The notes under the pieces are model-generated. The model ran no database searches. It saw only the letters and a program-made list of their open reading frames with translations, and was not told where the DNA came from. Positions 10,729 to 57,566 of a stretch of 64,000 nt of DNA are shown here, in pieces (the first letter of the stretch is position 1; every line of letters starts with the position of its first letter). The position numbers and the translations under genes are program-made. Origin of the DNA: a virus (Duplodnaviria; Caudoviricetes); the IMG/VR virus record IMGVR_UViG_3300035675_000001; one strand, written 5' to 3'.

Positions 10729-10861
10729 CTTGTCACTTCCAACCGGATGGCGTATCGGCGTTGCCGCCGACCACTTCACTTCCATCCTTCGCTCCAAACG
10801 CCTGGGAGAGTGAGTTCCCGACTTACGGGGCTGGAGTGAAAGGCATAAGCGCCCGATGGGG

Positions 10862-11580: not shown

Positions 11581-11589
11581 ATCGTGTGA

Positions 11590-11619
11590 ATAATATCGTT
11601 TACAATTTCTTTTCGTCAA
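11590..11619 (-). promoter_or_regulatory. sigma70-like early promoter
   Basis: TTGACG-N18-TATTAT. Confidence 0.6.
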
Positions 11620-11684
11620 GGGCAATCCGTTATTGTTTACTTTCTAAAGTCCTATTTCACAGCCAGTTGGCATGGGGTATTCAC

Positions 11685-12631: not shown

Positions 12632-12637
12632 AGGTAG

Positions 12638-12664
12638 AAAAAAGGGGCTGGCCCGGCCAGCCCC
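12638..12664 (-). terminator. intrinsic terminator
   Basis: GGGGCTGGC-CGG-GCCAGCCCC perfect 9-bp stem plus T6. Confidence 0.8.
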
Positions 12665-12681
12665 ATGTAGAACGGATTGGA

Positions 12682-13389: not shown

Positions 13390-13415
13390 TCGTTGATTGT
13401 TAAACTGACTGGTAA

Positions 13416-13444
13416 AACGTAAACTATCTTGAGTTCGGTGTCAA
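13416..13444 (-). promoter_or_regulatory. sigma70-like early promoter
   Basis: TTGACA-N17-TACGTT. Confidence 0.65.
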
Positions 13445-13463
13445 TAGGGTTCGTGCATTTTGT

Positions 13464-14288: not shown

Positions 14289-14298
14289 TCTGATGAAG

Positions 14299-14327
14299 AA
14301 TGTAAACGAAACCCCGTTCGCCGTCAA
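14299..14327 (-). promoter_or_regulatory. sigma70-like early promoter
   Basis: TTGACG-N17-TACATT. Confidence 0.65.
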
Positions 14328-14394
14328 GAGGGAACGTGTAAAAAGATGAAAAAAGTTTCAGCGTTGGAAGTCGCTGAAAACAAGGAAGATGGGA

Positions 14395-22880: not shown

Positions 22881-22947
22881 ATTGATGTTTGGGCAGAAAA
22901 GCCGGGCCAAGGCAACATGGTATTTTTCGTAAACTTTTCTTACCCTA

Positions 22948-30667: not shown

Positions 30668-30755
30668 ACTTCTCTACAGAACGCGGACGTTTTTGTTTAC
30701 TTTTTTGGATCGGTCGCCCGCCCTGTAGATACATCGGGGCCGTGTGCCCTCGCTT

Positions 30756-41947: not shown

Positions 41948-42559
41948 GTGAAGAAAGAGATCGGTTTCATCGCCAGCGAGTCTGGAGCGGTCGTCAAATA
42001 CGACCCAAAGATTCATGCGGTCCAGCAGTCTGTGCCGCCAGCGGGTCCGTTGACCAAGCACCAGCGAGCCACGCTTTACTTCAAGGCGCTGCGGGCTGCC
42101 AATGCCCTGCTCAGAGAAGTCGGGTTCCACACCGTAGCCGACGTGGGCCACAGCGGCTTCTGCATCGAGATGGACGGGTTCATCCTGGAGATGATGGTCA
42201 AGGAGCCTCCGCGCCTGGCCCACGTCACCAGCTACCCTGGCTACGAGTATGACCCCAAGAAGATCAACGCCAAGGTCACGATGGCGTGCCCCACCGAGGA
42301 CAATGAATACGTGATCCAGGTCATCGCCTCCTACCGGCGCGGGACCATGCCCCCGTTCTACATCGTCGTGGCCAAGGATTCACCCGACGTGCTCAAAGAA
42401 GCCTTCCGCAGCATCCTGTTCGCGGCCCGCGACTTCATCCAGAAAGACCCCAACCTGATGGCAAAAATCCAGGCCGCGATGGCAAACCGCGACCTGGATA
42501 AAGACCTGGAACGATTAAGCGCGGCAGACAAGTTCTTGCCGCCGCCGATGTCAGATTAG
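41948..42559 (+). CDS. hypothetical protein
   Basis: GTG start (VKKEIG) 7 nt after GTTCT. Confidence 0.6.
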   Translation: MKKEIGFIASESGAVVKYDPKIHAVQQSVPPAGPLTKHQRATLYFKALRAANALLREVGFHTVADVGHSGFCIEMDGFILEMMVKEPPRLAHVTSYPGYEYDPKKINAKVTMACPTEDNEYVIQVIASYRRGTMPPFYIVVAKDSPDVLKEAFRSILFAARDFIQKDPNLMAKIQAAMANRDLDKDLERLSAADKFLPPPMSD

Positions 42560-45500
42560 CGTGATCGCCACGTTGACGGCCACGGCCCTTCCTAGCGGCC
42601 CATCCGGGCTGGTGTTGAGAAGGTGGTAGGTGCCAGTGTTCTGGTCCTTGAGCACCAGTCCAGAGCTTCCTCCGCCGTCGAGGTTGATGGCGTTATAGAC
42701 CTTGTAGTCTTGGATGAGGATGTCCGCGATGTCGCCGACTCTCATGCCGCCCTGGCCTCCGCTGGACCCGCTGACGCCTTCCACCACGCAGATAACAAGC
42801 GTTTGCTGATCGAGGGTGACTCCGGCGACGGTGCGGGCACGGATCAAGTCATACCAGGAGTTGCTGTTGCTGTAGCCGCTGATGGCACTGAGCTGTCCGG
42901 CATTGGTGCCGTAAATCGGGATCGTCTTGACGCCATTGGTGATGACCTGGGCGCTGCCACTGACCGTGTTTACAAGCTGCATCGCTTCGAGGATGTGCTT
43001 GTTGTCACCGAACGCCGGGTTGCGATGAACAACAGCCGCGTGGAAGTTCGCGTCGAAGTTGAGCGCCGGAGCGTAGGGCAGTATCGCGTAGCTCTGGTTC
43101 GGGTATCCGAAGCCGATGGGCTGCGGCTCGAACGGCGAGAATTTATTCGTGCTCGAAACAGTGAAGCCGACGCTCGCTGCGTTCAAGTCAAAGGACGGGA
43201 ACGGCAGGAAGAAGTTGCCGTTGAACGCCAGGTCGGAATAGACCATTTGGGCGAAGTCAAGGGTCGTCTGCCGAACCGTGTCTCGCGTGCCTCCAGGATA
43301 CGTCACGTAAACATTGGCGTGGCGCATATCGACCACGGCGATGAACATGCGGGTGCCGTCAGGCAGCGCCCTGGACTCAACAGTCACGCCCTCCTTGGGG
43401 ACGAAGCTGCCGCTGAAATTCCACTCCAGCAGGTCAAACGCTGCGCCAGGCTCAGTCCCAGCCCAGGTGTAGATGCCCCCGTCATGGATGACCGTAGCGT
43501 AGCGTTCCACTGGAGGCGCAGCCACGACGATGCGCGTGCCACTGTCCGAAATATAAGCCGAAGGCCAGCGATAGAGGTAGGCATTCTCAACCACCCGCAA
43601 GCTGTTGCGCTCGACTTCGGGAACCCGGTTGGTGGGCGGAGGCGTTCCGTAGCGCACGAGGCTTTGGAACGGATTGGCAGCCAGGATGTGCGGCAGCTCG
43701 CCTTCTTCACCAAGCCACACATCCATGTCGCCATTGAATCCCGCGTCCTCGCGCCCTGCGTAAAGTTTGAAGACCAGCGGCCCGGCCAGCGGCGTGTTGC
43801 TGCCATACCAGGTCGAGGGATAAGGGAGTGCCGGAACTGAATCGTTGATGCCACGGCAGCGCACCAAAACGTATTCTGCGCCTGCCGATTGGACCGTCAA
43901 AATGCTGTCAGGATTGATCTCACTCGCAGTGATGTCCACGGGCAGCGTGCCGTAGAAGCGATACTCGCTGCGGTCAGTCAAACCCGTGAAGCCCACCGAG
44001 CGGATCGGAGTCGGGCTGGCAGGATAGAGAGTCCCTGCCGCGTAAAGGCGGGGCCGTGGCACCCAAGGCTTCCAGGTCACGTTGACCGCCGCCTTCTTGG
44101 CATACATGCGGAACGCGAGCACGTCTCCGGGCAGAACGTCGATGATGATGTTCCGAATGCCTTGGCGGAGCACAAAGTAAGAAGGCACGCTGTTGCGGTA
44201 GCGCACGATTTGCTTTTCGCTGTCGGCACTGACCGTAATCGACAGCGTGCCTTGGCCCGCGACGCTGAGGAAAGGCTGCTCAGGTCGGTTGGCCGTAATT
44301 CCGACAGTCTCCTCGCCCGTGGTCAACCCATTGATGCCGTCGTTGTAGGTCTCCGGGACGACAGCGAAGAATGGCATCCCATTGTCCACATGGTTCATGT
44401 AAACATCCACGTCGCGCTGGTTCTCCGGGTCACGGTAGCGGAACACCATACCGCCCGAAACGGACCCCGTGCAGATCACATCCTGGCAATCGTAAACAAC
44501 TTCCACGTCACTGCGGAGCACGGGCTGGTAACCAGTCGTGAAGGGCAGGCTGCCGTAGAGGCCGTAGCAGGTGCCTTGGAAGCAGACGTAATCAGGCGGA
44601 ACAGTCGTGCCGGGGTAAGGGATCACCAACGGACTGCTGGTGCCGTTGCAAGCCACAAAGCCGTAGGGCACTCCGCACATGCTTCCGTTGGTATAGGCCA
44701 CATACGGATCGTGCGGCGGGAACGTGCCGTAGAGCGTGCCGACCCACTCCTCGATCAAGCAGGGATTGCAGTGGCAGAGAGTCACGTTGTCGGCAGGGGC
44801 CACGAACGGAGCCGGGTCGTAGAGCGGCTGAGGAACGTGCATCTTGTGATCCACGTTTTCCTGGCCGTAGCAGAACATGCCCACCGGAGCGCACTTCGGA
44901 TCGTAGCAAGCCACGATGTCAGCGACCATCGGGTAGATCGTGCCGGACACGTCAACCGTGTAGGTGCCGCTGGAGCTGGTGGTCGTGCCCATCATCACAT
45001 CGACGAGGCCAGTGTTGTGGTAGCACGCGCCGTCGAACCGGGCGAAGGGAGCCGATGTCGTTGAATAGATCGTGCCCTCCAGAGGAACAGGGTCGGGTCG
45101 AACAGTGCCCATAGGCCAGGTGCCCAGGTCAGCGCCAGTTTCGTCCAGCGTCACGATCCCGACCAGGCCATTGTCGATGAAGCAGCCATCAGAAATGTCA
45201 ACGTCTGCCTCTCCGATCTTGAGGTAGGTCTCCAGATCAGGACTGAAAGCGTCGGCAGTGATGGGAACACTGACAGTCTCGGTCCCATACCCGCCCGCCG
45301 TCAGAAGACGCAGGGTGACGACCGTGCCCTGGTTCACAAAGCCATTGGCCAGGTAAACGGCGACTTTCCCGGATACCCGGCGCGGGCGCTGGATGATCGT
45401 CGGGTAGGCGGGCATCATGAACGAAATTGTAAACGGGCGTGCGTTCTCGATGGCGTAGGTGCTGTTGGCATCCACTTCAAGCACACCTGGAACAGTCGGA

Positions 45501-46744
45501 TCGTAGGACGTGACCCAATTCTGGTTCGTGTAGAACATCCGATGCGTCTCGTCAGAAAGGTCTGGCAGGCCATCCAGGCTCAAGGGCATCGGGAGAGTAT
45601 TCGGGATGTCCGTGCGGTAGTGCTGGAGCGTCGCCGGGCTGCTGCCCATGCGCTGCTCAGTCGTATCCGTGTCGGTCAGCAGGTCCAGATCGCTGAACAC
45701 GACCGCAAACCGCCGCGCCCGCATCCCCGCACCGCCCACCGAAGACGAACCGGGGCACGGCTGGAAAGCGTAAACCTCCTGGCGGTCATAGAAGCACTTG
45801 ATGCGGATGCGAAAGCGGAACGGCAAAATCGGACCAATGTGCGTGGCGAAGCTTTCGGTCGAAAGCTGGAGCCGAATGTCAGCCGGAGCAGGGATGATGA
45901 ACGTGTTCTCCAGGAACTCATACGGCAGGTCAACCGCGCCGGGCGGCTGGCCCAGGACAGACCAGTTGCCGGTTGGGGTTCGGACGAGCACTTGGTCGGG
46001 AGGATTGACCGATTCCGGGTCCAGCTCGACCTGGAAATAGGTCGTGCCCGGCAACAGGTAAATCTCCTCCGCCATCGCGGAAACGGACATTCCGATGGAG
46101 GACGAAAACGCAGCCTCGCCGATCTGCTCGCCGGTATAGACGTAGCCGAGAAACTGCTTGGTCTTGCCTGGCAGCGGGCGCAGCGCGGACTGGACTTCAA
46201 AATCACCTGCTACGACTGTTGAGCTGTCGCCGGTGATGATGTTGTTCTGGAAGTCAGTGATGCGGGCCACGATCCGATAAACGCCGTGGTCAGCGTTCTG
46301 GTAGTGGACCTTGTTGGTGTCTCCCGAAGCCTGCCAAATGCTGTTCCGGTAGAGGTTCCAGGTAACTGATTGGTAGCCCAAGCCTTGCGGGCTGGAAAAG
46401 AGGATGTCGGCGTCAATCGTGTCGCCCTTGGCGTATTTGAGCTGGCTCCAGTTGATCCAGGTCTCTACCGGGCCGGTGGGGTAGCCCATGACCTGGACCG
46501 TGAATGCCTGAGTCTGGCTGGTCGAATCGGGCTTGACCGCCATGACGCTGATGATCGTGGTCACCGGCGAAACCGGCGTGAACACGACCTTGGAACCCGT
46601 TCCCTCAGCAATCTTTACCGTCGTCCAGACAGTCCAAACTGTTTGGAGCGGCACTACCCCGTCAACCAGGATGTCCAGCTCTACCGCAACTCCGGCAGTC
46701 AGGATCGGCGGTAACGGATCGCCATTGAGCGTCAGCGTTATCAT
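42551..46744 (-). CDS. 1397-aa virion protein with C-terminal phosphodiester glycosidase (NAGPA/DUF2233-like) domain
   Basis: ARTVAGV...VVEG...AINLDGGGSS; FNGNFF; N-terminal PKD-like repeats; GTAGTTA upstream. Confidence 0.75.
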   Translation of the reverse strand: MITLTLNGDPLPPILTAGVAVELDILVDGVVPLQTVWTVWTTVKIAEGTGSKVVFTPVSPVTTIISVMAVKPDSTSQTQAFTVQVMGYPTGPVETWINWSQLKYAKGDTIDADILFSSPQGLGYQSVTWNLYRNSIWQASGDTNKVHYQNADHGVYRIVARITDFQNNIITGDSSTVVAGDFEVQSALRPLPGKTKQFLGYVYTGEQIGEAAFSSSIGMSVSAMAEEIYLLPGTTYFQVELDPESVNPPDQVLVRTPTGNWSVLGQPPGAVDLPYEFLENTFIIPAPADIRLQLSTESFATHIGPILPFRFRIRIKCFYDRQEVYAFQPCPGSSSVGGAGMRARRFAVVFSDLDLLTDTDTTEQRMGSSPATLQHYRTDIPNTLPMPLSLDGLPDLSDETHRMFYTNQNWVTSYDPTVPGVLEVDANSTYAIENARPFTISFMMPAYPTIIQRPRRVSGKVAVYLANGFVNQGTVVTLRLLTAGGYGTETVSVPITADAFSPDLETYLKIGEADVDISDGCFIDNGLVGIVTLDETGADLGTWPMGTVRPDPVPLEGTIYSTTSAPFARFDGACYHNTGLVDVMMGTTTSSSGTYTVDVSGTIYPMVADIVACYDPKCAPVGMFCYGQENVDHKMHVPQPLYDPAPFVAPADNVTLCHCNPCLIEEWVGTLYGTFPPHDPYVAYTNGSMCGVPYGFVACNGTSSPLVIPYPGTTVPPDYVCFQGTCYGLYGSLPFTTGYQPVLRSDVEVVYDCQDVICTGSVSGGMVFRYRDPENQRDVDVYMNHVDNGMPFFAVVPETYNDGINGLTTGEETVGITANRPEQPFLSVAGQGTLSITVSADSEKQIVRYRNSVPSYFVLRQGIRNIIIDVLPGDVLAFRMYAKKAAVNVTWKPWVPRPRLYAAGTLYPASPTPIRSVGFTGLTDRSEYRFYGTLPVDITASEINPDSILTVQSAGAEYVLVRCRGINDSVPALPYPSTWYGSNTPLAGPLVFKLYAGREDAGFNGDMDVWLGEEGELPHILAANPFQSLVRYGTPPPTNRVPEVERNSLRVVENAYLYRWPSAYISDSGTRIVVAAPPVERYATVIHDGGIYTWAGTEPGAAFDLLEWNFSGSFVPKEGVTVESRALPDGTRMFIAVVDMRHANVYVTYPGGTRDTVRQTTLDFAQMVYSDLAFNGNFFLPFPSFDLNAASVGFTVSSTNKFSPFEPQPIGFGYPNQSYAILPYAPALNFDANFHAAVVHRNPAFGDNKHILEAMQLVNTVSGSAQVITNGVKTIPIYGTNAGQLSAISGYSNSNSWYDLIRARTVAGVTLDQQTLVICVVEGVSGSSGGQGGMRVGDIADILIQDYKVYNAINLDGGGSSGLVLKDQNTGTYHLLNTSPDGPLGRAVAVNVAITLI

Positions 46745-46763: not shown

Positions 46764-47348
46764 TCACTCCGTGCCCAAAGCGCCGTAGATGAACTGCTGA
46801 TCGACGAAAACGAGGTCGGTGCGCTCGATGCTCATGGGGTTGACGCGGCCCTTGTCCGGGAAGACTTCCTGGCCCTTGAAAAACTCGTGCTTCACGTCTT
46901 TGCCCCACTGGAGCACGCTGAAATGCAGGTTTTCCTTCTTGGCCTCCTCTGCATTATCCGGCAGAACGATAAGGCTTTCGTGCCGGACGCTGGGTTCGAG
47001 CAACATGAAGCGCCCGACGATCTGGAAGGCGTCCAGGGCGATTTCGTCCCGCGTCAGCTTGGCGAGAATGTCCTCAACATGGAGGAAGCAGTTCAGAACG
47101 CCCTTGATGTCAAAGGTGATGGTCTGAGCGAATGCCTGGGGGAGCTGGAACAGCACAAGGTCGCCCGGCGTGTAAACTTCCTTGGTGCTGTATTTGCCCT
47201 CCGGCCCGTAGCCCTCCAGGGCACCGACCGCGATGACTTCACCGATCTCGTAAAGCTTGGCGCGATTGGGAGGCAAATGGATTGCCCCTTTCAACTTGGC
47301 AGCGTGCTGCTTCACCACGACTCGACCCGGCATAGCGTTCAATTTCAT
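46764..47348 (-). CDS. groES: GroES-like co-chaperonin, apparently two tandem domains
   Basis: MKLNAMPGRVVVK...GAIHLP...GEVIAVG...GDLVLF...EDILA; second half VGRFMLLE...LIVLPDNA...VLQWG...KGQEV. Confidence 0.7.
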   Translation of the reverse strand: MKLNAMPGRVVVKQHAAKLKGAIHLPPNRAKLYEIGEVIAVGALEGYGPEGKYSTKEVYTPGDLVLFQLPQAFAQTITFDIKGVLNCFLHVEDILAKLTRDEIALDAFQIVGRFMLLEPSVRHESLIVLPDNAEEAKKENLHFSVLQWGKDVKHEFFKGQEVFPDKGRVNPMSIERTDLVFVDQQFIYGALGTE

Positions 47349-47375: not shown

Positions 47376-48431
47376 TTACAAATGTGCTCCGGCTCCGCGC
47401 TGGCCAGGGAGGTCGGTGCCCAGGCGCATAATCTCCCGGTCCACGCTGTGGGGCCTCTCCCGCTCGGTGACGGCGTAGAGCGCAGCATCCACGTCGTCGT
47501 TGGCGTCATTGGTCAGCCGGGCCGTGCCGTCCGCGTTTTTCCCGTGCGGCATCTTGGCAACCGATACAGGCATCACAGAGCTGAGCCGCAGCGCAGTCTC
47601 CACGGCCAGGCCGGTGGAATCGCTGTCGTAGAGGATGCAAAACTCCTTGATGTGCCGGTAACGCTGAAACTTGGCTACCTGGGACCGGCTGAGACGATGC
47701 GTGAAGATACAGACCGGGACGATGTGCTGGATGTCCAGCTCCCGCAGCTTGCGGCGGATCGAGAGCGTGTTCAGGATCGACTCGACCACGATTACCAGGC
47801 TGATATTCGGGTCGGCCAGCGCGTCCAGGTTGTAAACCCAGTAGCTCGGCCCATAGGGCACTTCCTTTTTGCTGGGGAACTTCTTGGTGGTCTCGAAGCC
47901 CTCGTCGGAGTAGGTGCGGCCCTGGTAATAGACGCAGCGCACGCCCTCATAGACCGGGAAGATGCAGAAAGGCTCCCAATTTCCTGTCCGCGTGAATCCG
48001 GCCCCCGCTTCCTCCAGGTCTTCGATGCCCAGGTGCTTACGCTCGGCCATGTCCTTGCAGAAACGCCAGTAGCAGCTCTTTCGGTTCTTGGCCAGCGGGC
48101 TGAACCCCTCCGGCAGCTCGATGTTCTGGACCGGCGTGACCGCCTGCTTCATGTCGCCCCGGAGCGTCTGGCCGAACTCGTCAAACCCGGCGCTGCCATC
48201 ATCCGTCCAGCTCAGCCCCTTCAACTTGAACAGGGCGGCAACGTGGTGCGGCTGGGGGTCGTGGCAGCGCCAGCAATGCGACCGTAAGGTCTTGACGTTG
48301 ATGCTGCGATTTCCCGTTCTATCTCCACAGCCAGGCACGGGGCAGACGATGTAGATTTCATCGTCCGTCGTGCGGTCTTTGATGACCTCAAAGACGTTGC
48401 CAATCTCGCGTTTGACCCTATCCGGCGACAT
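47376..48431 (-). CDS. DNA primase (zinc finger plus Toprim)
   Basis: CPVPGC...HCWRC zinc-binding domain; VIVVES and ILYDSD Toprim motifs. Confidence 0.85.
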   Translation of the reverse strand: MSPDRVKREIGNVFEVIKDRTTDDEIYIVCPVPGCGDRTGNRSINVKTLRSHCWRCHDPQPHHVAALFKLKGLSWTDDGSAGFDEFGQTLRGDMKQAVTPVQNIELPEGFSPLAKNRKSCYWRFCKDMAERKHLGIEDLEEAGAGFTRTGNWEPFCIFPVYEGVRCVYYQGRTYSDEGFETTKKFPSKKEVPYGPSYWVYNLDALADPNISLVIVVESILNTLSIRRKLRELDIQHIVPVCIFTHRLSRSQVAKFQRYRHIKEFCILYDSDSTGLAVETALRLSSVMPVSVAKMPHGKNADGTARLTNDANDDVDAALYAVTERERPHSVDREIMRLGTDLPGQRGAGAHL

Positions 48432-48453
48432 GCTGTAGTTAAGAACGAAGTTT

Positions 48454-48645
48454 ATGGAACTGAACCAGATGATCGACATTTCGAGGAAGTTCGAGCAGGA
48501 CCAGCAGCAGGCTGCCATCGCCCAGGATGGCCAGAACAAAGCTGCGTTCGCCCTGAACTTGATCCAGCGGATGCCGCAAGAACCGACGAAGCCCGAAGAA
48601 CCGCCGAAAATCCCGTCCCTGGGAGCCTTGGCCATTCCGAGCTGA
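48454..48645 (+). CDS. small hypothetical protein
   Basis: 63 aa; GTAGTTA 12 nt upstream. Confidence 0.5.
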   Translation: MELNQMIDISRKFEQDQQQAAIAQDGQNKAAFALNLIQRMPQEPTKPEEPPKIPSLGALAIPS

Positions 48646-48646
48646 C

Positions 48647-49519
48647 ATGAAACCGCAAGGTGTCTGCATCGTTGCGATGGGTGAGCCATGCTTTGGCGTT
48701 TACGCCTACAACCTGGCTGTCACCATCAAGTTCCGCGACCCCTCCGCACAGATTGCCGTGTTTTACGAGCCGCGCACCCTGTGCGGCCTGGAGCCGCAGG
48801 AGATCAATGTCTTTGACGAGCTGATCGAGCTGGGGCCACGGCACGAATACACCTACCAGGGGCGGATCAATCCCCTGGGATTCAAGCTCCGCGCCCACCT
48901 GTTCTCGCCCTTCGAGCGCACGATCCTCCTGGACGCCGATAGCGCCTGGTTCGGACCCCGGACGGTGACCTCTTTCTTTGAAAACGAGATGGCCGGGCTG
49001 GACTTCGCCACAGTCAGCCACGGCGTCAGCCACGCCACGAGGCCAATGGCCCTGGGCAACGTGATCGACCACGGCCCGCTCTGGCAGGTCCAGAAGGCAT
49101 TCGAGATTCCCGATGGCCGGACGATCCATGAGTGCTACACCCAGTGGTTCTACCTGGTTCGGAATGAGCGCACCGAAGCTTTCCTCAAGCGAGCGATCAG
49201 CCTTTACGACGACTGCCAGATGGGCCTGCGGATGCGCGGCTCGGCCTGGCGCAACTCGGTCGTAAACGATGAGCTGGTCCTGTCCGCCGCCACAGCCCTG
49301 TGCGAAATAGCTCCTGGCCGCATTCCGTTTCATCCCACCACGGACGGCTCGACCAAGGAGCTGACCCCGGAACAGCAAATTGTAAACATTGTCGGCGAGG
49401 ACACCACGGAGAAGTCCATCCAGGCGCTCAAGATTTACACCTTCATCACCGACGCCATCCGCGACATCGGTTTCCGCTGGCTGCCTAAGCCGTGGCAGCC
49501 AAAGTTTTATCCCTATTAG
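48647..49519 (+). CDS. nucleotide-diphospho-sugar transferase-like protein
   Basis: FERTILLDADS DxD motif, KLRAHLFSPF, NDELVLS. Confidence 0.65.
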   Translation: MKPQGVCIVAMGEPCFGVYAYNLAVTIKFRDPSAQIAVFYEPRTLCGLEPQEINVFDELIELGPRHEYTYQGRINPLGFKLRAHLFSPFERTILLDADSAWFGPRTVTSFFENEMAGLDFATVSHGVSHATRPMALGNVIDHGPLWQVQKAFEIPDGRTIHECYTQWFYLVRNERTEAFLKRAISLYDDCQMGLRMRGSAWRNSVVNDELVLSAATALCEIAPGRIPFHPTTDGSTKELTPEQQIVNIVGEDTTEKSIQALKIYTFITDAIRDIGFRWLPKPWQPKFYPY

Positions 49520-50210
49520 CAGCGCGGTCGCGCAGCTCGTGGTAGATCGGCCATAAGGCGTCCGGGCACTTGGCGTCTGTGACGTGCGATAGCTTGGGTT
49601 CGATGAAATCCTGGCGGATGGGGTAACCCAGCAGCGTTTCCAGAAAAGTCATCGCGTTTCCGTTCATCAGCTCGTCGTGCTCGACGTAGAAGAAGGTGCC
49701 ATCGTCGTTGGCCAGGACATGCTGATAAGCGTTGGCCCACATACCCTCCAGTGCGGTCCTCTCGCGTGAAATAGAGGGATGGTCCGCCCGGAGCCGCAGG
49801 GCGCTGTCCACGAAATCGGAAGGATTGCGAAACAGCACGATATTGACGTGCGGCTGAACGAAGAAGGGCTTCCAGGCCAGGTAGGTGAAGGCAAAGCGCG
49901 GGTCTTTGAAAGCATACGGCTGGAACCAGAAGTAACGCCGCATGTTCATCGGCACAGGGAACTTGGCCAGGGGCATCCGCTCACGGGCTTCCAGCGGAAT
50001 CGGCGCAATCAGAATGCCGCTGTAGTCGCAGCTTTGTTTCAAAAGCTCGTTGTTCCAGTGGCAGATGTGGTGATCTTCAAAATAGCCGTGTGGCATCTGG
50101 CTGGTAGCTCCAACCGGGTGAAGCCCGGTGAACACTCCTGACTTGGCCAAGGCACCGGCCAGGGCAGACGTGCCGCACCTGCCTGAACCGAAGATAAGAC
50201 AGTTCCTCAT
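49485..50210 (-). CDS. sulfotransferase family protein
   Basis: IFGSGRCGTSAL (5'-PSB loop), FKDPRF, LFRNP..VDS (3'-PB). Confidence 0.75.
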   Translation of the reverse strand: MRNCLIFGSGRCGTSALAGALAKSGVFTGLHPVGATSQMPHGYFEDHHICHWNNELLKQSCDYSGILIAPIPLEARERMPLAKFPVPMNMRRYFWFQPYAFKDPRFAFTYLAWKPFFVQPHVNIVLFRNPSDFVDSALRLRADHPSISRERTALEGMWANAYQHVLANDDGTFFYVEHDELMNGNAMTFLETLLGYPIRQDFIEPKLSHVTDAKCPDALWPIYHELRDRAANRDKTLAATA

Positions 50211-50857
50211 GACTTATGCACTTTCGTTGACCACCCATCACGCACGCAGGCCAGCATTCTCTGGCGCAGACCCTCCAAGCCAACCGGGTTCAGAGCTGCC
50301 CAGTAGTGAATCATCCAGGCGTCCGGCCAGAAGTTGGAGTCCTGGTTGCAGATCAACCACTCCGGGATGAACGAAATCTTGCTGCGGAAATCCGGGAAAT
50401 AGTGCATGAGGCACTTGATGGCATTCTGCTCCCAGGTGTCGTGCGTGTCGAACGGATCAGCCGGAACGATGGACCCCAGGTGAGGGAGCATGTCGAACAA
50501 CGACTTTGACCAGGCGCAGTTTTTGACCAGGAAAATGCCGAAGCAAACGCCCCACTTATCGAGGGAGACGAGCAGCGGCTTATCCCACGAAAAGGTCTTG
50601 ACCACATCCTCCAGCTTGATGTCGTCGCGCACCATGAGCGCATCGGCATCGAGCCACAGCAGCCAATCACAGTCGTCCATCTGTGAGCGGACAGCGGTGA
50701 TTTTGTTCCAGGACGCAGGTTGCTTCGGATTGAACAGCGACCGGTAGCACACGAACTCGTAGCCGTGCTTGAGGGCATACGCCTGGGTTATCGGGGCGCT
50801 GATGTCACCCAGCATCGCCCGTCCCTCGTCGTAGAGCATGACGACTTTTATCTTCAT
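50207..50857 (-). CDS. GT34 (GMA12/MNN10-like) glycosyltransferase
   Basis: SWNKI...DWLLWLDADAL...GIFLVKN...WEQNAI. Confidence 0.75.
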   Translation of the reverse strand: MKIKVVMLYDEGRAMLGDISAPITQAYALKHGYEFVCYRSLFNPKQPASWNKITAVRSQMDDCDWLLWLDADALMVRDDIKLEDVVKTFSWDKPLLVSLDKWGVCFGIFLVKNCAWSKSLFDMLPHLGSIVPADPFDTHDTWEQNAIKCLMHYFPDFRSKISFIPEWLICNQDSNFWPDAWMIHYWAALNPVGLEGLRQRMLACVRDGWSTKVHKS

Positions 50858-51624
50858 CAGTAGTAGAGCCACTTGGGATGGCGCGATTGAGGCTCGGTCA
50901 TTTTGCGGGCGACCAGGATCAAGCACTCCTCGCGGATCACTTCCGGGAAATTGTTGGCTTTCAGGTGATCCATCGTGTGCTGGTCCGTGTCGCTGAAATC
51001 CACCGCGTAGTTGCAGCCCTTGATTTCCACCACCTGGTATCCGCTGGCTTCGGCCAGGTCTTTCAGCTCGCCGGGGGAGTATTCCCTGGCCAGGCGCGGT
51101 TCGCCTGAGATGATGTAGTTGCTGAAAAACCCAGGGTGAAATCCGTTGAGCACCTTCCAAACAGCTTTGATCGAAACCGCGTTGGGCACGGTCAGAATCA
51201 GAGTGCCGTTGGTCTTCATGATGCGGTTGATCTCATACATCATCCACATCGGATCGCGCTGCATGTGGGGCAGGACTTCGCAGCAGAGCACCGTGTCGAA
51301 CATCCCGTCGCGGTAGGGGAAGTTGTCTTTTTCCGCGTCGAAGTAATCCATCTGGCACTGGAACTCTTTGCCCTCGCGGGAAAAGATGCTGGCCGACCGC
51401 TTGCCTTTGCCCAGGTAGCAGGCATAGACATCCTGGTAGCCGCCGAGGACTTTGCAGACGGGGGCCATCTGGAGAAAGCTCCCCATGTCGAGGAGGTTTT
51501 TGCCCGGCCCTCCCTCCGGCACCTTTTCCAGAGTTCGGAGCATACGGATGCGGTGCCCCTTGACGTAATTCTCCTGATCCTCTGTGTGGGTCCAGTCGAT
51601 TATCTGAGCCAATTCAAGATTCAT
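50857..51624 (-). CDS. class I SAM-dependent methyltransferase
   Basis: LLDMGS motif I, FDTVLCCEVLPH, LILTVPN. Confidence 0.8.
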   Translation of the reverse strand: MNLELAQIIDWTHTEDQENYVKGHRIRMLRTLEKVPEGGPGKNLLDMGSFLQMAPVCKVLGGYQDVYACYLGKGKRSASIFSREGKEFQCQMDYFDAEKDNFPYRDGMFDTVLCCEVLPHMQRDPMWMMYEINRIMKTNGTLILTVPNAVSIKAVWKVLNGFHPGFFSNYIISGEPRLAREYSPGELKDLAEASGYQVVEIKGCNYAVDFSDTDQHTMDHLKANNFPEVIREECLILVARKMTEPQSRHPKWLYY

Positions 51625-53909
51625 AGCTTCTGCAAATCGTTGACAATTCCATCATCAAAGAACGCCATCCGGCATCGGCAATCGTTTTCACCGAAGGTGA
51701 CCAGCCAGCCGTCTGCTGCCCGAATGGCCCCGCAGGGGAAGATCACGGAGTGCTGGGAGGGCCGGTCGTGCTGAACCGATTCCTCCTCCCCGGCCAGGAG
51801 GGGGAACTTGGACATCAGCACTGGCTTGAACGGAGGGTGAGGCTCGAAGGCGTAAACGCCGATAAAGTATTGACGGATGGGTCCGTAGGACTCCTCCCGG
51901 ATGTTGATGCTCGAATGAAAGAAGGACCAGAGCAGCCCGTCGTGAAGCACCGGCGATGAACCGCCACGCAGCTCGCCCCGTTTCCAGTCGTAGTCGTAGC
52001 GGGTCTCGTGAACAAACTTGGTGGTGTGGTCCTCCAGGTTGACCTCGATGACCTTGTGAGGAGCGATGCCGTAGGAAGCGAACATCCGGCCCTCGGCCTC
52101 GAAGAAACACCAGTTCTTCTCCGGCCTGGTGTGATACCAGGGGCGCTCCAGGTAGAAGCTTTCCGCCGTGGTCATGTCGTCGTTAAGGCGGGCGATCCCG
52201 ACCTCATGTGCGTCGGTATATGTGAGCCAGAGATTTTCTTTGTAAACGAAAAATCTTGGGTCTTCCACGCAGTAGTTGCCAAACTTGGAATGGAGGTCCA
52301 GAACCTTGGTGGACTCCAGGATCGGGTTCCACTCCCGGTCCAGCTCGCTGACCGCGACCATCGAGAGCCGGAACCAGGGGATACACTCGCACCGGTAGGC
52401 CAGGAACTTTCGCCCCTTCCAGATGGCCAAGCTGGGGTTGAACCAGGCTTCCACCCGGCCCTTCCGCCCGAAGGTCCACTGGATGACGTTGCGCTTCATC
52501 GGCGGCGGGATGGGAATGGCCTGGAGCATCCGGCTCGTCTCGAACAGGTGTGTAGAAGCCATGTCGATGCTCCGGCGCAGCCCATTGATCGTGGCCGGAA
52601 CGCCGTTGTGGGTATAGAAAGACTCGAACTTCTTGGGCGTCTCAATGACGTTGATCTCCTGGGCCTGGTGAACCAGTTTGCGCTGGTGCCACTTCTCCTT
52701 GCGCCGGGGATTGGGCGGCAGATGCTTTAGCTCAGGAATGTAAACAAACCTGTCTTGCCCGTAAATCGCGTTGGGCCGCTTGAACTTGCAGTTGGCGAGC
52801 TGGGGGTAGGTTTCCTGAATCGTGTTGACCTTCAAACCCTCGGCAATGGCGTAAGGGCAGCTCTGATTGCCGATGAACAGATGGCACCCCGCGATCAGCC
52901 TGGCCAGCTCCAGCAGGTTGGCCGTGGGAACGTGCGGGATCAGGCCGTAGTCGGCCACGAAGGAAGCATACTCCTCGCCGGTGCCGACGAACACCATGTC
53001 TCGCCGAAATTTGTTTACAATCTGGTGCCAGGGGAAGTCTTGATTGCGCCAGCGATGACTGCGGTGAATGACCACGCTGCGCTTGAGGACGATGGGGTCC
53101 ACGTCCAGCCAAGGCATCAGATCATTGAAAAACGTCCCGGCGCTCAGACAGCACGCATCGAGGGACTGCTCCACCAGGTTCTTGCCCAGCCCGCCGAAGT
53201 TGCGAAACAGGTTCAGGTCGTAGTTCACAATCGGCATCTTCTCGACGTAAAAGACCGACTTCACGTAGGGCTGAGCCAGCATGAGCGGAGCGAGGTTCTT
53301 CACGACCTTGGGGGACATGACCTCCCGCAAATCAGGCTTGGGGTTGAGCCTGATCTCCGGCCCCAGGTAGAAAATGCCAAAGCCCATGACTTTCATGGCG
53401 GGCATGGAGTAGATGATGTCGCCCAAGTTGCCGCTGTGGTAGAGCCTCCAGCCCTTGGGGTCGTGGTTGCCCTCCATGCGCTCGACCAGGCCCACCGCGC
53501 CGACTTCCCGTGTCTTCATCAGGGGCGAGCTGAGGGCCGGATAAGACCTGCGGAAGAATGAGGAGCTGTAGATCGGCTCGTCCATCGCGTGGCGCAGGTC
53601 CACCCGAAGAAGCGGTTGGGTCAGCCTGGCATGGATGCCGAGCACTTCCTGGTGATACCAGAGGCCCGGCGTCCAGATGACGCAGACCTGGCCGCTGGAA
53701 ATACGCACCCCTGCCGCAACCGGTGATTCGCCGTTGCTGGGCTTGACCTGGAGGCCGTCACCGATGTCCTTGTCGAGAAGGTTTACAAAAACCAATTCAC
53801 GGTGCGGGTGCGTCTGGCGCTGAAAGCTTTCATGGATGGATCGCAGAGACCCTACGGTCTTCTCATCCACCACCACGATTGTCGAAACCAAGACTGACGC
53901 ATCTATCAT
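51621..53909 (-). CDS. three-domain protein: GT2-like, GT9-like and beta-propeller glycosidase-like (GH130/GH43 clan)
   Basis: HSGNLGDIIYSMP...FIGNQSCPYAIAEG (GT9-like); FNPSL, EDPRF, EKNW, LRGGS, VIFPCG (propeller). Confidence 0.7.
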   Translation of the reverse strand: MIDASVLVSTIVVVDEKTVGSLRSIHESFQRQTHPHRELVFVNLLDKDIGDGLQVKPSNGESPVAAGVRISSGQVCVIWTPGLWYHQEVLGIHARLTQPLLRVDLRHAMDEPIYSSSFFRRSYPALSSPLMKTREVGAVGLVERMEGNHDPKGWRLYHSGNLGDIIYSMPAMKVMGFGIFYLGPEIRLNPKPDLREVMSPKVVKNLAPLMLAQPYVKSVFYVEKMPIVNYDLNLFRNFGGLGKNLVEQSLDACCLSAGTFFNDLMPWLDVDPIVLKRSVVIHRSHRWRNQDFPWHQIVNKFRRDMVFVGTGEEYASFVADYGLIPHVPTANLLELARLIAGCHLFIGNQSCPYAIAEGLKVNTIQETYPQLANCKFKRPNAIYGQDRFVYIPELKHLPPNPRRKEKWHQRKLVHQAQEINVIETPKKFESFYTHNGVPATINGLRRSIDMASTHLFETSRMLQAIPIPPPMKRNVIQWTFGRKGRVEAWFNPSLAIWKGRKFLAYRCECIPWFRLSMVAVSELDREWNPILESTKVLDLHSKFGNYCVEDPRFFVYKENLWLTYTDAHEVGIARLNDDMTTAESFYLERPWYHTRPEKNWCFFEAEGRMFASYGIAPHKVIEVNLEDHTTKFVHETRYDYDWKRGELRGGSSPVLHDGLLWSFFHSSINIREESYGPIRQYFIGVYAFEPHPPFKPVLMSKFPLLAGEEESVQHDRPSQHSVIFPCGAIRAADGWLVTFGENDCRCRMAFFDDGIVNDLQKL

Positions 53910-55636
53910 ACGCGGACAACCTGTAACCCGGCCACATAGCCGACGATTTCAATTCTGATTACGGAGCCTGGAACCACGTCCAGTCCGGTAAAAAGAACGA
54001 AGTTGTCGTTCTGTGTCCACGAGGTTACCCCGGTCGGGGCGGTCGTCGCGTGAAGGATGGTTCCGCCGTCCACTTGGACGTAGTAGTCCGAACCAGCCGT
54101 TCCGAACTTCTGATCGCTGTAGAGGTAAAGCTGGTAGGTGCCGGGCGGCAGGCCGTGAAGCCGGAAAATGCTGTCGTAAGGAACCCCGCCCATGTCGTAG
54201 CCGCCGATCCAGGTCTGGAGCATCCCGTTCCAGGTCGGGGTCACGCCGCTGTTGTTGACCAGGGGCGCAATGCGCTCCAACCAGATCGGGGTGTCGGTTT
54301 GGACCGCATCCTTGAGGTAGATGTAGGGCGTGGCGGAATAGGTGAAGCAGACTTCCGGCGCAAAGCTGTAATCGTAACCGCAGAAGCAGTTTCGGTAATC
54401 CTTGGTGAACGCCACGGGCACGTAGTTGTTCCAATAGTCGCCCGTGGTGCCGACCACGGCAGGCCCCCAGTAGCGAGCGGTGGTGATGCCGTTTTCCAGG
54501 TCGAAATCGTCCGTGAGCAGTGTCGTGGCCGTGGTCAGGTTTTCGAGCGAGATGGAATCCAGGAGCGAGCCGTAAGCCTGGCCAGGGTCCGTTTCCAGCG
54601 CGATCTTTCGGAACGAGATTTTGCCGGTAGAGCCGTCCCCGACGAAATCGACGTAGTAGTCCTGGAACGGCTGCATGTAGTCGGTGATGTCGATGGTCGA
54701 ATCCACCAGCGCCCCCGCTTTGTAGTTCAGGATTTCGTGGGCGCGGGCCAGGCGTTGGTTGCCCGCCGCCCGCCAGCTCAGGCGGAACGTCTGGCCGAGA
54801 GTGAAAGTGAAAGTGGTCTTGCTCTCCAAGCGCCCATACCAGCTCATGCTGCCGCCCGCGTTGCCGCTGCCGGACATGTCAATGTAGAGGCCGTTGCCGG
54901 GCAGGAAATCGTAGAAGCCCCGGCCAATCAGATCAACCGAGCCATTGTCCACGACATCCCAGTTGGTGAAATTCGAGTAGCCCAGTGCGCCACGCCCCTC
55001 GGTCACAGTGCCGTCGCTGCCATTGAAGTCGATGTTGACCAGCACCGGCTTCTGATAGCCCAAAATGTTTACAAAATAGTGAATGCCTCCCACAATCACC
55101 TGGCGGATGATCGTGGTGAAGGACCGAGGCAGCCTGTCGGCAGCCTCTTTGATGTAGCCGGTGCGCCCAACCGCGTGCGTGCCGTCCTGGAGCTGGAAAT
55201 GGCGGCTGACCGAAGCAGGGTCGTATGCCTTGCCATACCACTTGATCTGGAAGAACAGCTCATCGGTGAGCAGGTAGCCGATGATGTCGCCGCGTTCGAC
55301 CGGCTGGGCCGTCTGGACCGCGCAGGTGAGCAGGCCGTGGACCGTCGTCCACACGTCATTGCCGTGGTCAATGGTGATTTCGTAGGTGGGCTGAAAGCCG
55401 AGCTGGCTCCCGGACGTGTATTTCCAGGTCGGAAAGATGAGCTTGATCGAGATGACTTTGCCCGCGCCCGGAGCGACGCAAGGCTCGCCCGTTTCAAACC
55501 GGTAAACGCAGCCCAGGTTGACCTCGCCCTCAACGGAGAAGTCTTCCAGCAGGAACAACTTCTTCCGGCTGGGAGGCCGAAGCTTCTGGAGCGTCCATCG
55601 CGCTGGCAACTTCAATGGTGACAGGTCTGGAATCAT
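53906..55636 (-). CDS. baseplate hub-like protein with degenerate M23 peptidase fold and carbohydrate-binding-like C-terminus
   Basis: ITIDHG...VHGL...VERGDIIG...LFFQI...YDP M23-like scaffold. Confidence 0.5.
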   Translation of the reverse strand: MIPDLSPLKLPARWTLQKLRPPSRKKLFLLEDFSVEGEVNLGCVYRFETGEPCVAPGAGKVISIKLIFPTWKYTSGSQLGFQPTYEITIDHGNDVWTTVHGLLTCAVQTAQPVERGDIIGYLLTDELFFQIKWYGKAYDPASVSRHFQLQDGTHAVGRTGYIKEAADRLPRSFTTIIRQVIVGGIHYFVNILGYQKPVLVNIDFNGSDGTVTEGRGALGYSNFTNWDVVDNGSVDLIGRGFYDFLPGNGLYIDMSGSGNAGGSMSWYGRLESKTTFTFTLGQTFRLSWRAAGNQRLARAHEILNYKAGALVDSTIDITDYMQPFQDYYVDFVGDGSTGKISFRKIALETDPGQAYGSLLDSISLENLTTATTLLTDDFDLENGITTARYWGPAVVGTTGDYWNNYVPVAFTKDYRNCFCGYDYSFAPEVCFTYSATPYIYLKDAVQTDTPIWLERIAPLVNNSGVTPTWNGMLQTWIGGYDMGGVPYDSIFRLHGLPPGTYQLYLYSDQKFGTAGSDYYVQVDGGTILHATTAPTGVTSWTQNDNFVLFTGLDVVPGSVIRIEIVGYVAGLQVVRV

Positions 55637-55645
55637 GTTATCCCT

Positions 55646-56452
55646 CTAAGTAGCTTTCTGTGGTATCTGCTGGATGTCGTCAGCGTAAAACGTGGCAGCC
55701 AGCGTCACGACCTTGGCCGTGTCGTAGGACATTTCGCTGAGCTTGAACGATCCCAGCCAGCACCGGGTCAGCCGGAATTGAGAGGAGAATTGAAGGTCGT
55801 TGATGATCGAGTTTGCTCCGATAGCCGCAGAAGCCGCCAAGCCCACTGTTTGAATTGTTGAGTAGCCAAAAAGACCGGCCAGGGCGTTTCCCTGCTGGAT
55901 CAACGCTTGCGCCGGGCCAGTGTCGAGCACCTGGGGGTCCACCCCGCGCAGGAGCAGCAGTCTCACATCGAAAGCGTAGTCGATCCGGTAGTCGGCGTTG
56001 AGCCGGATCGCATACTCGCTGGACATGGCCCCGCGCCCGGCGCGGACGACTGCTCTCCAGCCGTCAAGCATCTGGTAAACGTCTGATTTGTAGGGGGTAG
56101 TGTTGGCTGTCCCGGCGCTACCGGCAGTGTAGCAATCCAGGATGAAGGTCATGGAGATCGGTTCCAGGGCTTCGTCCCAGGAGGGGGTGGGGTAGGGCCT
56201 GGAATCGCGCCGAATCGGCTCAGCCCTGGTCTTGAGTTCAGGCAGCGTCACGTTCTGAACAAAGTAGGAAGCCAATTTGGGCGGCAGATAATACGGGGCC
56301 AGCCCAGGGGTCATGTCCTCAGAGCGCGTGAGCATCTGGTTCAAGCCCTGGAGGGCGTCCTTGAAATCAACGATCCACAGGTCAGAGCGTTGAATCTCAA
56401 CGCCCTTTAGCGTGCCCCACGGATTCGTCTGATTGTCGATTACGCTTCTCAC
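55646..56452 (-). CDS. tail-tube-like baseplate protein (T4 gp48/gp54-like)
   Basis: FVQNVTLPEL...WDEALEPISMTF...CWLGSFKLSEMSYD...LAATFYAD; GTG 4 nt after GTAGTTA. Confidence 0.55.
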   Translation of the reverse strand: MRSVIDNQTNPWGTLKGVEIQRSDLWIVDFKDALQGLNQMLTRSEDMTPGLAPYYLPPKLASYFVQNVTLPELKTRAEPIRRDSRPYPTPSWDEALEPISMTFILDCYTAGSAGTANTTPYKSDVYQMLDGWRAVVRAGRGAMSSEYAIRLNADYRIDYAFDVRLLLLRGVDPQVLDTGPAQALIQQGNALAGLFGYSTIQTVGLAASAAIGANSIINDLQFSSQFRLTRCWLGSFKLSEMSYDTAKVVTLAATFYADDIQQIPQKAT

Positions 56453-56471
56453 GCTGTAACTACTCTTGGAT

Positions 56472-57566
56472 ATGAGCTTGCTCGGAACATACGCCGGTCT
56501 GGTTGAGGACAACAAAGACCCGGAAAAGCTTGGCCGGTTAAAGGTCAGGGTTCCACATGTTTACGGGGCAGTTGGCGGCGTTTTTGGTGCGATCAGCACC
56601 GAAAACCTGCCCTGGTCGATGCCTTCCGGCCTGCCCAACGGCCTTTCGCAGAACAGCGGCGGCTTCGACTGGCTGCCCGAAGTCGGGGACCAGGTGCTCG
56701 TCCGGTTTTTGGACGGAGAGCCGGAGAAGCCCGTTTACGAGTGGTTCATGCAGACGCAGAAGGCGGCTGAGACCTTCAAGCTCCACCAATACAAGGACGC
56801 CACAGGCGCGATCCCCGGCAGCGGGGGAGGCAAGCCCAAACGGGGCGCTATGGTCCGCTACGGCCACACGGTGGAGTGGAACGCAGACGGGCTGATATTG
56901 ACGACCAGCAAAGGCTATCGGCTGCTCCTGACCGATGCCAGCAGGGCCGGGAACGACGGCGACATCCAGCTCGCCTCGGCGATGGGCCAATACCTGGAGT
57001 TCGACGACCTGCTAAACCAGTGCAACTTGAACGTCAACCTGGACTGGCAGATCAACGTCGGGAACCAGATTTACTCCCTGTCCGACTCGGTGAGCATCAA
57101 CACGATGAGCAACGAGATCGAGATGGTCTCCGGCAGCTACATGTCCATCGACACCCTGGACAACCTGGAGGCGATTGTCGGCGGCGATTGGCGGATGGAT
57201 GTGACCGGTGACACCTACTGGACGATGGTTGGGGACGTGACCATCGACGTGACCGGCAGTTGGATCATGACGGTCGTCACTGACCTGGACCTGAGCGTCC
57301 TGGGCAACGCCTTCGCAACCATCACCGGCAATCTCGAACTGACCAGCATTGGGACCACGACCCTTGACTTTTCCAGCCTGTTCCTCGGCACCGGTTCAAC
57401 AGAGTCTTTTGTTCTTGGAAATCAATTACTTACCTACCTGACACAACTGGTCAGCCTGCTCCAAGCGCACCAGCACCCCGAACCAGACGGCACCACGTCT
57501 CCGACCGCGACGGTATTCCCAACGCCTACTGCTGCCCTGCTGAGCCAGGTCATCAAGGGTCGTTGA
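56472..57566 (+). CDS. baseplate central spike (gp5/VgrG-like OB fold plus beta-helix)
   Basis: VEDNKDPEKLGRLKVRVP, LPEVGDQVLVRF; 8-residue V/I-x-G beta repeats; HQH near the tip. Confidence 0.85.
   Translation: MSLLGTYAGLVEDNKDPEKLGRLKVRVPHVYGAVGGVFGAISTENLPWSMPSGLPNGLSQNSGGFDWLPEVGDQVLVRFLDGEPEKPVYEWFMQTQKAAETFKLHQYKDATGAIPGSGGGKPKRGAMVRYGHTVEWNADGLILTTSKGYRLLLTDASRAGNDGDIQLASAMGQYLEFDDLLNQCNLNVNLDWQINVGNQIYSLSDSVSINTMSNEIEMVSGSYMSIDTLDNLEAIVGGDWRMDVTGDTYWTMVGDVTIDVTGSWIMTVVTDLDLSVLGNAFATITGNLELTSIGTTTLDFSSLFLGTGSTESFVLGNQLLTYLTQLVSLLQAHQHPEPDGTTSPTATVFPTPTAALLSQVIKGR

Follow-up and report, generated by a model that had tools for sequence, protein, structure and literature searches.

A cassette of predicted enzymes for the synthesis and tailoring of a glycan is joined by overlapping stop and start codons to tail structural genes in a 64,000-nucleotide stretch of viral DNA (IMG/VR record IMGVR_UViG_3300035675_000001; Duplodnaviria; Caudoviricetes), the whole of which is hereinafter termed the window. 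We interpret this cassette as a late set of glycan-building and glycan-modifying enzymes embedded in a virion operon, with a surface protein of the virion as the likeliest acceptor; this interpretation is tentative, and we would give it somewhat less than an even chance of being right. The evidence for it comes from the layout of the operon, the predicted activities of its products and its conservation in related viruses. The constituents of the operon and of the gene that converges on it are the following (GT and GH denoting glycosyltransferase and glycoside hydrolase families, and pLDDT the predicted local distance difference test score):

56457-56463, minus strand: GTAGTTA box, candidate late promoter, 4 nucleotides upstream of the GTG start of p268
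55646-56452, minus strand: p268, putative tail-tube-fold protein with a GTG start (language-model feature match 0.94)
53906-55636, minus strand: p576, 576 amino acids, with an N-terminal degenerate M23/LytM domain, a variable middle and a beta-rich C-terminus
51621-53909, minus strand: p762, tri-domain protein of 762 amino acids (GT2-like remnant, GT9-like module and GH130-like propeller)
53580-53909, minus strand: p762 residues 1-110, GT2-like half-domain resembling the first half of GT2
52710-53456, minus strand: p762 residues 152-400, compact GT9-like module of the GT-B type (predicted model, pLDDT 87)
51624-52448, minus strand: p762 residues 488-762, GH130/GT108-like five-bladed beta-propeller, by fold and profile
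50857-51624, minus strand: predicted class I S-adenosylmethionine (SAM)-dependent methyltransferase, 255 amino acids (Methyltransf_11, 32.3 bits against 21.2; phrog_22502)
50207-50857, minus strand: predicted GT34-family glycosyltransferase of the GT-A type, 216 amino acids (PF05637, 68.1 bits against a cut-off of 23)
49485-50210, minus strand: p241, predicted sulfotransferase of the 3'-phosphoadenosine 5'-phosphosulfate (PAPS) type, 241 amino acids (Atlas 0.98)
49478-49501: 8-bp GC-rich hairpin in the overlap of the sulfotransferase and p290 genes; no other strong hairpin was found in the region
48647-49519, plus strand: p290, probable GT-A-fold transferase with an LLDADS motif (PF11051, 16.8 bits, below cut-off)

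Architecture of the operon

Six genes on the minus strand lie behind the GTAGTTA box, in the order p268, p576, p762, methyltransferase, GT34 and sulfotransferase, as the initial annotation of this DNA had described them. It had further stated that the last five are joined by stop/start overlaps, and all four junctions are indeed of this kind, being ATGA between p576 and p762 and between p762 and the methyltransferase, TGATG between the methyltransferase and GT34, and ATGA between GT34 and the sulfotransferase. The first two genes are separated by a gap of 9 nucleotides that contains a GAGGGA ribosome site, whereas no recognizable Shine-Dalgarno site precedes p762 or the methyltransferase, GT34 and sulfotransferase genes. 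As these four enzyme genes lack obvious ribosome sites of their own, they are likely to be translated by reinitiation at the overlaps. No further promoter-like box was found on the minus strand inside the cassette and no convincing terminator within it; terminator-like sites overall are not commoner than in shuffled sequence.

The GTAGTTA word occurs 10 times in the 64-kb window against 0.78 expected, almost always 4-12 nucleotides upstream of a start codon, and precedes, among others, the genes for the portal, the wedge, a collagen-like (fibre-like) protein, a large protein termed p1397 (described below) and the tube-like protein. The copy in front of the tube-like gene is kept in the related loci L001/L002, L005, L007 and L009, down to a protein identity of 33%, and in L007 the word is also found before the sheath gene.

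At the other end the sulfotransferase and p290 genes converge with an overlap of 35 nucleotides, and the hairpin contained in this overlap could possibly be a two-way terminator. The convergence had been predicted correctly by the initial annotation; its description of p290 as another GT corresponds to a weak GT-A signal. p290 is a variable accessory gene that the window shares with L005 and L015 and that is missing from L001/L002 and from the contig P0004, with a ratio of nonsynonymous to synonymous substitution rates (dN/dS) of 0.35.

The structural proteins p268 and p576

The tail-tube-like protein p268 was found in all relatives. Searches of Pfam, PHROG and PDB sequences with it gave no match; in the Atlas it shares 195 of 256 features with its match, and the top clusters are all phage tail tube families. 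It is probably a tube initiator of the baseplate or a hub-proximal subunit.

The product of the second gene, p576, had been labeled an M23-like hub. An M23-like domain is present at residues ~41-140 (PF01551, 27.3 bits, slightly below the cut-off of 28.7), while the hub label is weaker than had been claimed. In a by-eye alignment the zinc ligands of the HxxxD and HxH motifs are absent, the corresponding stretches reading VYRFETGEP and TDELFFQIK, and the same holds for the homolog in L005. Given these missing metal ligands we term it a degenerate LytM domain, the fold of which may persist, with catalysis being unlikely. It is followed by a variable middle region (~220-388), missing from the 395-residue L005 homolog, and a conserved beta-rich C-terminal domain of ~190 residues (389-576), the counterpart of which is a separate open reading frame (ORF) in L007 with a weak match to fn3_3. 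Homologs of p576 are confined to this phage lineage, and a search for related loci with p576 as the query recovered none.

The fusion protein p762

The third product had been described as a GT2/GT9/glycosidase fusion. Of these assignments GT9 holds at the level of the fold and GH130 at the level of both fold and sequence profile, whereas GT2 is represented by an N-terminal remnant that lacks the DxD motif and was aligned at the motif level. This N-terminal module was not matched in Pfam and folds poorly, with low pLDDT; it is possibly a docking or regulatory module.

Fold comparisons of the second module recovered WaaF (1psw, Z 15.4), WaaC (2h1f, Z 15.3), the Veillonella GT9 protein (3tov, Z 14.9) and TibC (4rap, Z 13.8), against Z-scores of at most 8.8 for other GT-B folds, and the top 30 hits of a Foldseek search were all GT9. 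Like WaaC, WaaF and TibC, its nearest folds, the module combines a G-D motif at the N-terminus with a C-terminal half of the nucleotide-sugar type; however, it spans ~250 residues as opposed to the 320-390 of those enzymes. Its H-S-G-x-x-G-D motif is invariant (H158, G160, G163 and D164). The gathering score of 22 for PF01075 was missed both by p762 residues 130-480 (11.8 bits) and by P0016 (11.6 bits), and the module is therefore called GT9-like rather than a member of GT9. At least 127 relatives of this compact module were detected in IMG/VR, on contigs of 29-63% GC, typified by the motifs HSG-x-x-GD and NQS-x-P; they are often stand-alone proteins of ~245 residues and otherwise parts of many different fusions. 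No homolog of the module was found in cultured phages.

The C-terminal propeller aligned with 4udg at a Z-score of 25.8 (root-mean-square deviation 3.6 over 279 residues) and with 9erh at 25.1, GH43 proteins scoring ~19, and Foldseek recovered GH130 with an E-value of 1.2e-12. Its sequence profile (A3) matched the beta-1,2-mannobiose phosphorylase 7fip (E 1.2e-16) with the EDPR motifs aligned: E549, D550, P551 and R552, which vary little or not at all, correspond to the vEDPRi stretch of 7fip and 9fj8. E549, D550, R552, K598, N599, H665 and Y681 are invariant. The aspartate of the EDPR motif we take to be the catalytic aspartate of GH130. The gathering score of 26 for PF04041 was missed by p762 itself (21.8 bits); its homolog P0007 passes with 36.7 bits. 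The domain thus shares with the GH130 phosphorylases and synthases and with the GT108 mannosyltransferases of Leishmania a five-bladed propeller (Z ~25) and the conserved EDPR Asp, His and Tyr, and differs from them in its fusion to a GT9-like module and in its sequence (15-18% identity). By these criteria it is a divergent relative of GH130/GT108, which might act as a hydrolase, a phosphorylase or a transferase.

The N-terminal module was predicted to dock on p576 with a score of 0.55, as opposed to 0.00 for the best of 3 controls, with a contact agreement of at least 72% between runs and a partner pLDDT of at least 82. In calibration, 58 of 80 solved complexes passed the mark for such a prediction, as did 2 of 110 mismatched pairs; passes at 0.60 or less amount to only 7 of the 80 solved complexes, yet include both of the mismatches.

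These features of p762 bear on an alternative explanation, according to which it would be an enzyme carried by the virion: docked on p576 at the baseplate, its propeller would cleave or bind beta-mannoside-type glycans on the host surface at infection, its GT-like modules would serve as carbohydrate-binding or scaffold domains, and the methyltransferase, GT34 and sulfotransferase would be unrelated passengers. The coupling of p762 to p576, the combination of a constant N-terminal module with varying C-terminal ones, as in modular tail proteins, the weak docking prediction and the existence of hydrolases within GH130 (PDB 5a7v, by its title) are in line with it. However, the invariant H, G, G and D residues of the GT9-like module and its strong constraint suggest catalysis with a nucleotide sugar, a donor that would be unavailable outside the cell; moreover, the GH130-like domain retains phosphorylase-type basic residues, and the modules are separate small proteins in the relatives L017 and L019. 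We consider a virion-borne role of this kind quite improbable.

The methyltransferase, GT34 and sulfotransferase

The methyltransferase also matches Methyltransf_23 (29.4 bits against a cut-off of 27), and the GT34 protein contains a WLDADA (DxD) motif and matches the xyloglucan xylosyltransferase XXT5 in PDB (4.4e-4). The last protein of the operon, p241, has no match in Pfam itself. It has 1112 homologs, and PF13469 (Sulfotransfer_3) is matched by 33 of the 40 that were aligned (best 3.1e-10); its family profile matches 12 sulfotransferase PDB sequences, the best being TPST1 (1.4e-5). The 5'-phosphosulfate loop of p241 reads GSGRCGTS (residues 8-15), with G8, R11 and G13 invariant in the 40 homologs, and its 3'-phosphate motif is FRNPSDFVDS, with R128, P130 and S136 invariant, in a stretch that aligns with TPST1. 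Through its homologs p241 is thus confirmed as a predicted sulfotransferase with intact PAPS-binding motifs.

No membrane segment was detected in the proteins of the cassette, and GT34 lacks a hydrophobic anchor, so that membrane anchoring of these enzymes was rejected; all of them look soluble. The cassette also lacks genes for a flippase, a polymerase or a lipid-carrier transferase. The initial annotation had proposed that these enzymes make a methylated and sulfated glycan, and as judged from their sequences the set is compatible with the building of such an oligosaccharide.

The glycosyltransferases might instead act on DNA, glycosylating modified bases of the phage as in the T-even phages, with the methyl and sulfate groups tailoring the sugar. 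A primase gene adjoins the cassette, and phage glycosyltransferases are known to hypermodify DNA, as far as this is related in a paper citing the work (Pyle 2024, cited in PMC12619734). Against this, the cassette contains no base-hydroxymethylase or kinase, and the signal upstream of it is that of virion genes. The fold of the GT9-like module aligns with T4 alpha-glucosyltransferase at a Z-score of 7.0, which is generic GT-B background as compared with 15 for GT9. We know of no member of the GH130, GT34 or sulfotransferase families that acts on DNA. Hypermodification of DNA is therefore a very improbable role for the cassette.

Conservation and evolution of the cassette

The operon is kept together with its overlaps in at least 5 relatives (L001/L002, L015, the P0004 contig and L005/L016) at amino acid identities of 58-83%, the ATGA overlap of p762 and the methyltransferase being among the conserved junctions. 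The dN/dS values of the cassette are 0.11-0.17, with p762 as the most constrained gene of the operon. The coupling of the cassette to baseplate or virion genes, as claimed in the initial annotation, is real and physical, and the cassette is conserved and under purifying selection.

More distant relatives vary in content. In L008 an additional gene of 374 codons lies between the M23 gene and the p762 homolog; in L009 the N-terminal module of p762 is fused to different modules, and genes for a DUF5672 protein and a methyltransferase follow; L007 has the tube, M23 and primase genes and no cassette. In L017 and L019, the tube and M23 proteins of which are 29-33% and ~30% identical to those of the window, the two structural genes are followed by a gene of 177-179 codons that corresponds to the N-terminal module of p762, by a GT9-like gene and, after two others, by a GH130-like gene, an ORF of 220-242 codons and the primase. 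The GT9-like and GH130-like core beside the tube and M23 genes is thus old, being present in split form in these loci, and the tri-domain protein is a later fusion of modules that are separate genes there. Homologs of the methyltransferase, GT34 and sulfotransferase were found, in this comparison of the lineage, in the window's own clade only.

A comparable chain occurs in an unrelated phage contig of 47% GC from an NCBI metagenome-assembled genome (L010). There, at 6943-15303 and downstream of a terminase gene and a portal-sized gene of 768 codons, genes for a GT2, a Methyltransf_24 protein, a GH130-GT9 fusion and a sulfotransferase are joined by 4-nucleotide overlaps, with another methyltransferase gene further on. 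The fusion protein has 846 residues and a domain order that is the reverse of that in p762.

The varying content of the cassette among relatives is reminiscent of accessory genes, and this bears on a further alternative, namely that the enzymes remodel the envelope of the host. They would transfer sugars of the heptose or mannose type as well as methyl and sulfate groups onto precursors of the lipopolysaccharide (LPS) core, O-antigen, capsule or exopolysaccharide, which would mask receptors, sparing progeny from loss on debris or blocking other phages, and the position in the operon would amount to hitch-hiking. Such a role would fit the proximity of the GT9-like fold to the LPS heptosyltransferases WaaC and WaaF and the possibility that the beta-sandwich domain at the C-terminus of p576 binds glycan; moreover, cell-wall genes of large T4-like cyanophages, including one for a GH130-type phosphorylase, have been read as modifiers of the host surface (PMC12801897). 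However, receptor masking is normally an early function, and the sole promoter-like signal here is the box of the virion genes. The lack of a flippase, polymerase, lipid-carrier transferase or membrane segment also speaks against it, as does the persistence of GT9/GH130 genes beside the tube and M23 genes across a very deep divergence, which would be unusual for a free metabolic gene. We regard envelope remodeling as unlikely, while taking it seriously.

Proposed function of the cassette

The favored interpretation, that the cassette acts on a virion surface protein, can be cast as a sequence of steps. Transcription would start from the GTAGTTA box before the tube-like gene and run for ~7 kb, and p762, the methyltransferase, GT34 and the sulfotransferase would be translated by termination-reinitiation at the ATGA and TGATG overlaps, in step with p268 and p576. 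The soluble enzymes would draw in the cytoplasm on nucleotide sugars, SAM and PAPS of the host. A short oligosaccharide would be built by the GT9-like and GH130/GT108-like modules of p762, by GT34 and, where present, by p290, and would then be capped by the methyltransferase and the sulfotransferase. The acceptor would be a phage-made surface protein of the virion during assembly, possibly reached via the p762 N-terminus docked on p576. The analysis shows the identities, the coupling and the conservation of the genes and their ancient synteny with those for the tube and M23 proteins; the late timing, the donor sugars, the product and the acceptor are what we infer from them. With regard to the donors, a relative that is 96% complete (G002) encodes a single sulfotransferase, and no match to APS kinase, NTP_transferase, CTP_transf_like or SIS_2 (the GmhA family) was found in it, the last two having been sought as markers related to heptose; sugar donors including ADP-heptose, as well as PAPS, would hence have to be supplied by the host.

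Several considerations favor a virion protein as the acceptor: the virion-type signal and the coupling to virion genes, the great age of the linkage to the tube and M23 genes, the solubility of the enzymes together with the lack of lipid-carrier or export genes in the cassette, and the presence of TibC, a GT9 enzyme that glycosylates protein, among the closest folds.

Other observations speak against it. The GTAGTTA motif is the sole basis for the late timing, and the substrate of the best-studied GT9 enzymes is the inner core of LPS and not protein. The presence in L007 of a tube-M23 module without the cassette implies that the glycan is not essential for assembly. Neighborhood counts for the GT9-like family over 80 viral loci in IMG/VR (L013-L092) showed a sulfotransferase within 10 kb in 4, all from the window's clade, and a GH130-like gene in 7, so that a general link between sulfotransferases and the GT9-like family had to be rejected; L010 is one additional instance, which came to light separately. 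Finally, the docking of p762 on p576 is weak evidence: by the calibration of the method, a pass at such a score is more often false than true for a pairing that was not likely beforehand. A more specific proposal, in which a baseplate or fibre protein is coated with a phage-made O-methylated and sulfated oligosaccharide by the GT9-like and GH130/GT108-like enzymes, docked via the M23/beta-sandwich protein, is one we consider rather unlikely in all its particulars.

Phage lineage and other features of the window

The window phage is an uncultured T4-like jumbo myovirus with ~60% GC, and its own contig apparently has 222 kb. The window contains a T4-type set comprising the portal, gp25, sheath, a gp5-like OB protein and a hub protein of the T4_baseplate family. 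Its DNA was recovered from wetland metagenomes, and the runs that contain it are all DNA runs from wetland, soil or subsurface. Searches of cultured phages in INPHARED, by megablast and tblastn with the region, p576, p762 and two GT9-like representatives, gave no match, and the portal is at most 25% identical to that of any isolate. Single-sequence PDB searches with p268, p576, p762, p241 and p290 yielded nothing useful. The Moraphages (PMC12619734) were ruled out as the lineage; their predicted hosts are Bacteroidota and nothing connects them to this phage of 60% GC.

Other features of the window that touch on the cassette or its surroundings are:

56466-57566, plus strand: gene for a gp5-like OB-fold spike/hub protein of the baseplate, transcribed divergently from the operon (PF04717, 1.1e-10; phrog_430, 8e-22)
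48435-48441 and 48454-48645, plus strand: second GTAGTTA box and an ORF of 63 codons, leading into p290
46764-47348, minus strand: GroES-like co-chaperonin, 194 amino acids, about twice the usual length, with the Cpn10 domain at residues 3-97 only
42551-46744, minus strand: p1397, 1397 amino acids, with its own GTAGTTA box and a C-terminal phosphodiester glycosidase domain of the NAGPA type (PF09992, 2.4e-14)
29390-30673, minus strand: second GT9-type gene, 427 amino acids (PF01075, 3e-9, above cut-off), adjoining a helicase gene and far from the cassette
22071-22952, minus strand: ORF with a GT-A-like QMDADVV motif, no significant family match
9008-9532, minus strand: cytidylyltransferase-like gene (PF01467, 1.6e-18)

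The start codons of the tube-like and gp5-like genes are 13 nucleotides apart (56452-56466; ~21 nucleotides in L001/L002), so that each of the two promoters must fall within the neighboring gene or right at its border. L001/L002, L005 and the P0004 contig all retain the 63-codon ORF with its box, and this ORF runs antisense to the longest primase ORF (47376-48689, minus strand) over about the first 80 of its codons; as the primase genes called in relatives start later (355-360 amino acids), the reading of the primase as 437 amino acids is probably too long. A second start-proximal word, GTTCTA, occurs at 57588 on the plus strand, in front of the hub gene of the T4_baseplate family (57603), and at 47361 on the minus strand, in front of the GroES gene (47348); the minus strand of the cassette has no copy of it.

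p1397 is kept in all relatives, L007, L017 and L019 included, and may act in the virion as a depolymerase of phosphodiester-linked glycans. The ORF at 22071-22952 had been presented as a further GT2 that abuts the wedge gene: its TAA stop does fall within the GTAGTTAA box of the 2157-residue wedge gene and the GT-A-like motif is present, whereas the GT2 assignment found no significant family match behind it. The cytidylyltransferase-like gene has no match in G002, which implies that sugar-activation genes vary within the clade.

Relationship to known systems and implications

The A064R protein of the chlorovirus PBCV-1 combines two GT domains with a methyltransferase and serves to build capsid glycans without the Golgi enzymes of the host. 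The likeness to the window lies in a virus-encoded multi-domain enzyme and in the combination of several transferase activities with O-methylation; PBCV-1 differs in being a eukaryotic giant virus with other folds and no sulfation, and in the phage the methyltransferase is a separate coupled gene. The initial annotation had called the system more like giant viruses than typical phages, which is overstated in view of virion glycosylation in mycobacteriophages and of the GT and GH130 genes of cyanophages. Mycobacteriophages glycosylate their own virions, according to the papers that cite this work (Freeman 2023, cited in PMC12619734 and PMC12801897), and those of the Che8 type resemble the system proposed for the window phage in that, as these papers relate it, their GTs have been suggested or shown to modify virion proteins in the cytoplasm while particles are assembled. 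They differ in the GT families used, and in those accounts no sulfotransferase or GH130-type module is reported for them; the window phage, which is known here from its genes alone, differs in having the genes joined into a baseplate operon. Large T4-like cyanophages encode up to 13 glycosyltransferases together with a GH130-type phosphorylase (PMC12801897). Among these the cyanomyoviruses S-SCSM2R, S-SCSM1 and P-SSM2 share with the window phage the large T4-like genome type, the many GTs and the gene for a putative GH130-type mannoside phosphorylase; however, their clusters are read as modifiers of the host surface, baseplate coupling is not described, neither a fusion of GT9 with GH130 nor a coupled sulfotransferase is reported (PMC12801897), and the window has no detectable sequence relation to cultured phages.

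Thus, phage glycan clusters and virion glycosylation are already known. In our literature searches no description was found of a cassette that is coupled to a baseplate operon and ends in a sulfotransferase, of a GT9-GH130 fusion with split ancestors, or of a compact GT9-like family restricted to viruses. The function of sulfotransferases in phages was stated to be unclear in a genome paper (PMC10580990). Phage sulfotransferases recur in viromes, and here one of them closes a coupled chain of GT and methyltransferase genes inside a virion operon, which amounts to a concrete and testable pathway. Beyond this, the compact GT9-like module and its relatives constitute a viral family, and the locus displays three separate genes merging into one tri-domain enzyme. 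If the proposed coating of a baseplate or fibre protein is true, the glycan would be the first sulfated one on a virion to be encoded by a phage and would provide a function for phage sulfotransferases. If the virions do carry such a glycan, consequences would follow for adsorption, for stability in the humic and polyanionic water of wetlands and for the evasion of recognition by hosts or grazers.

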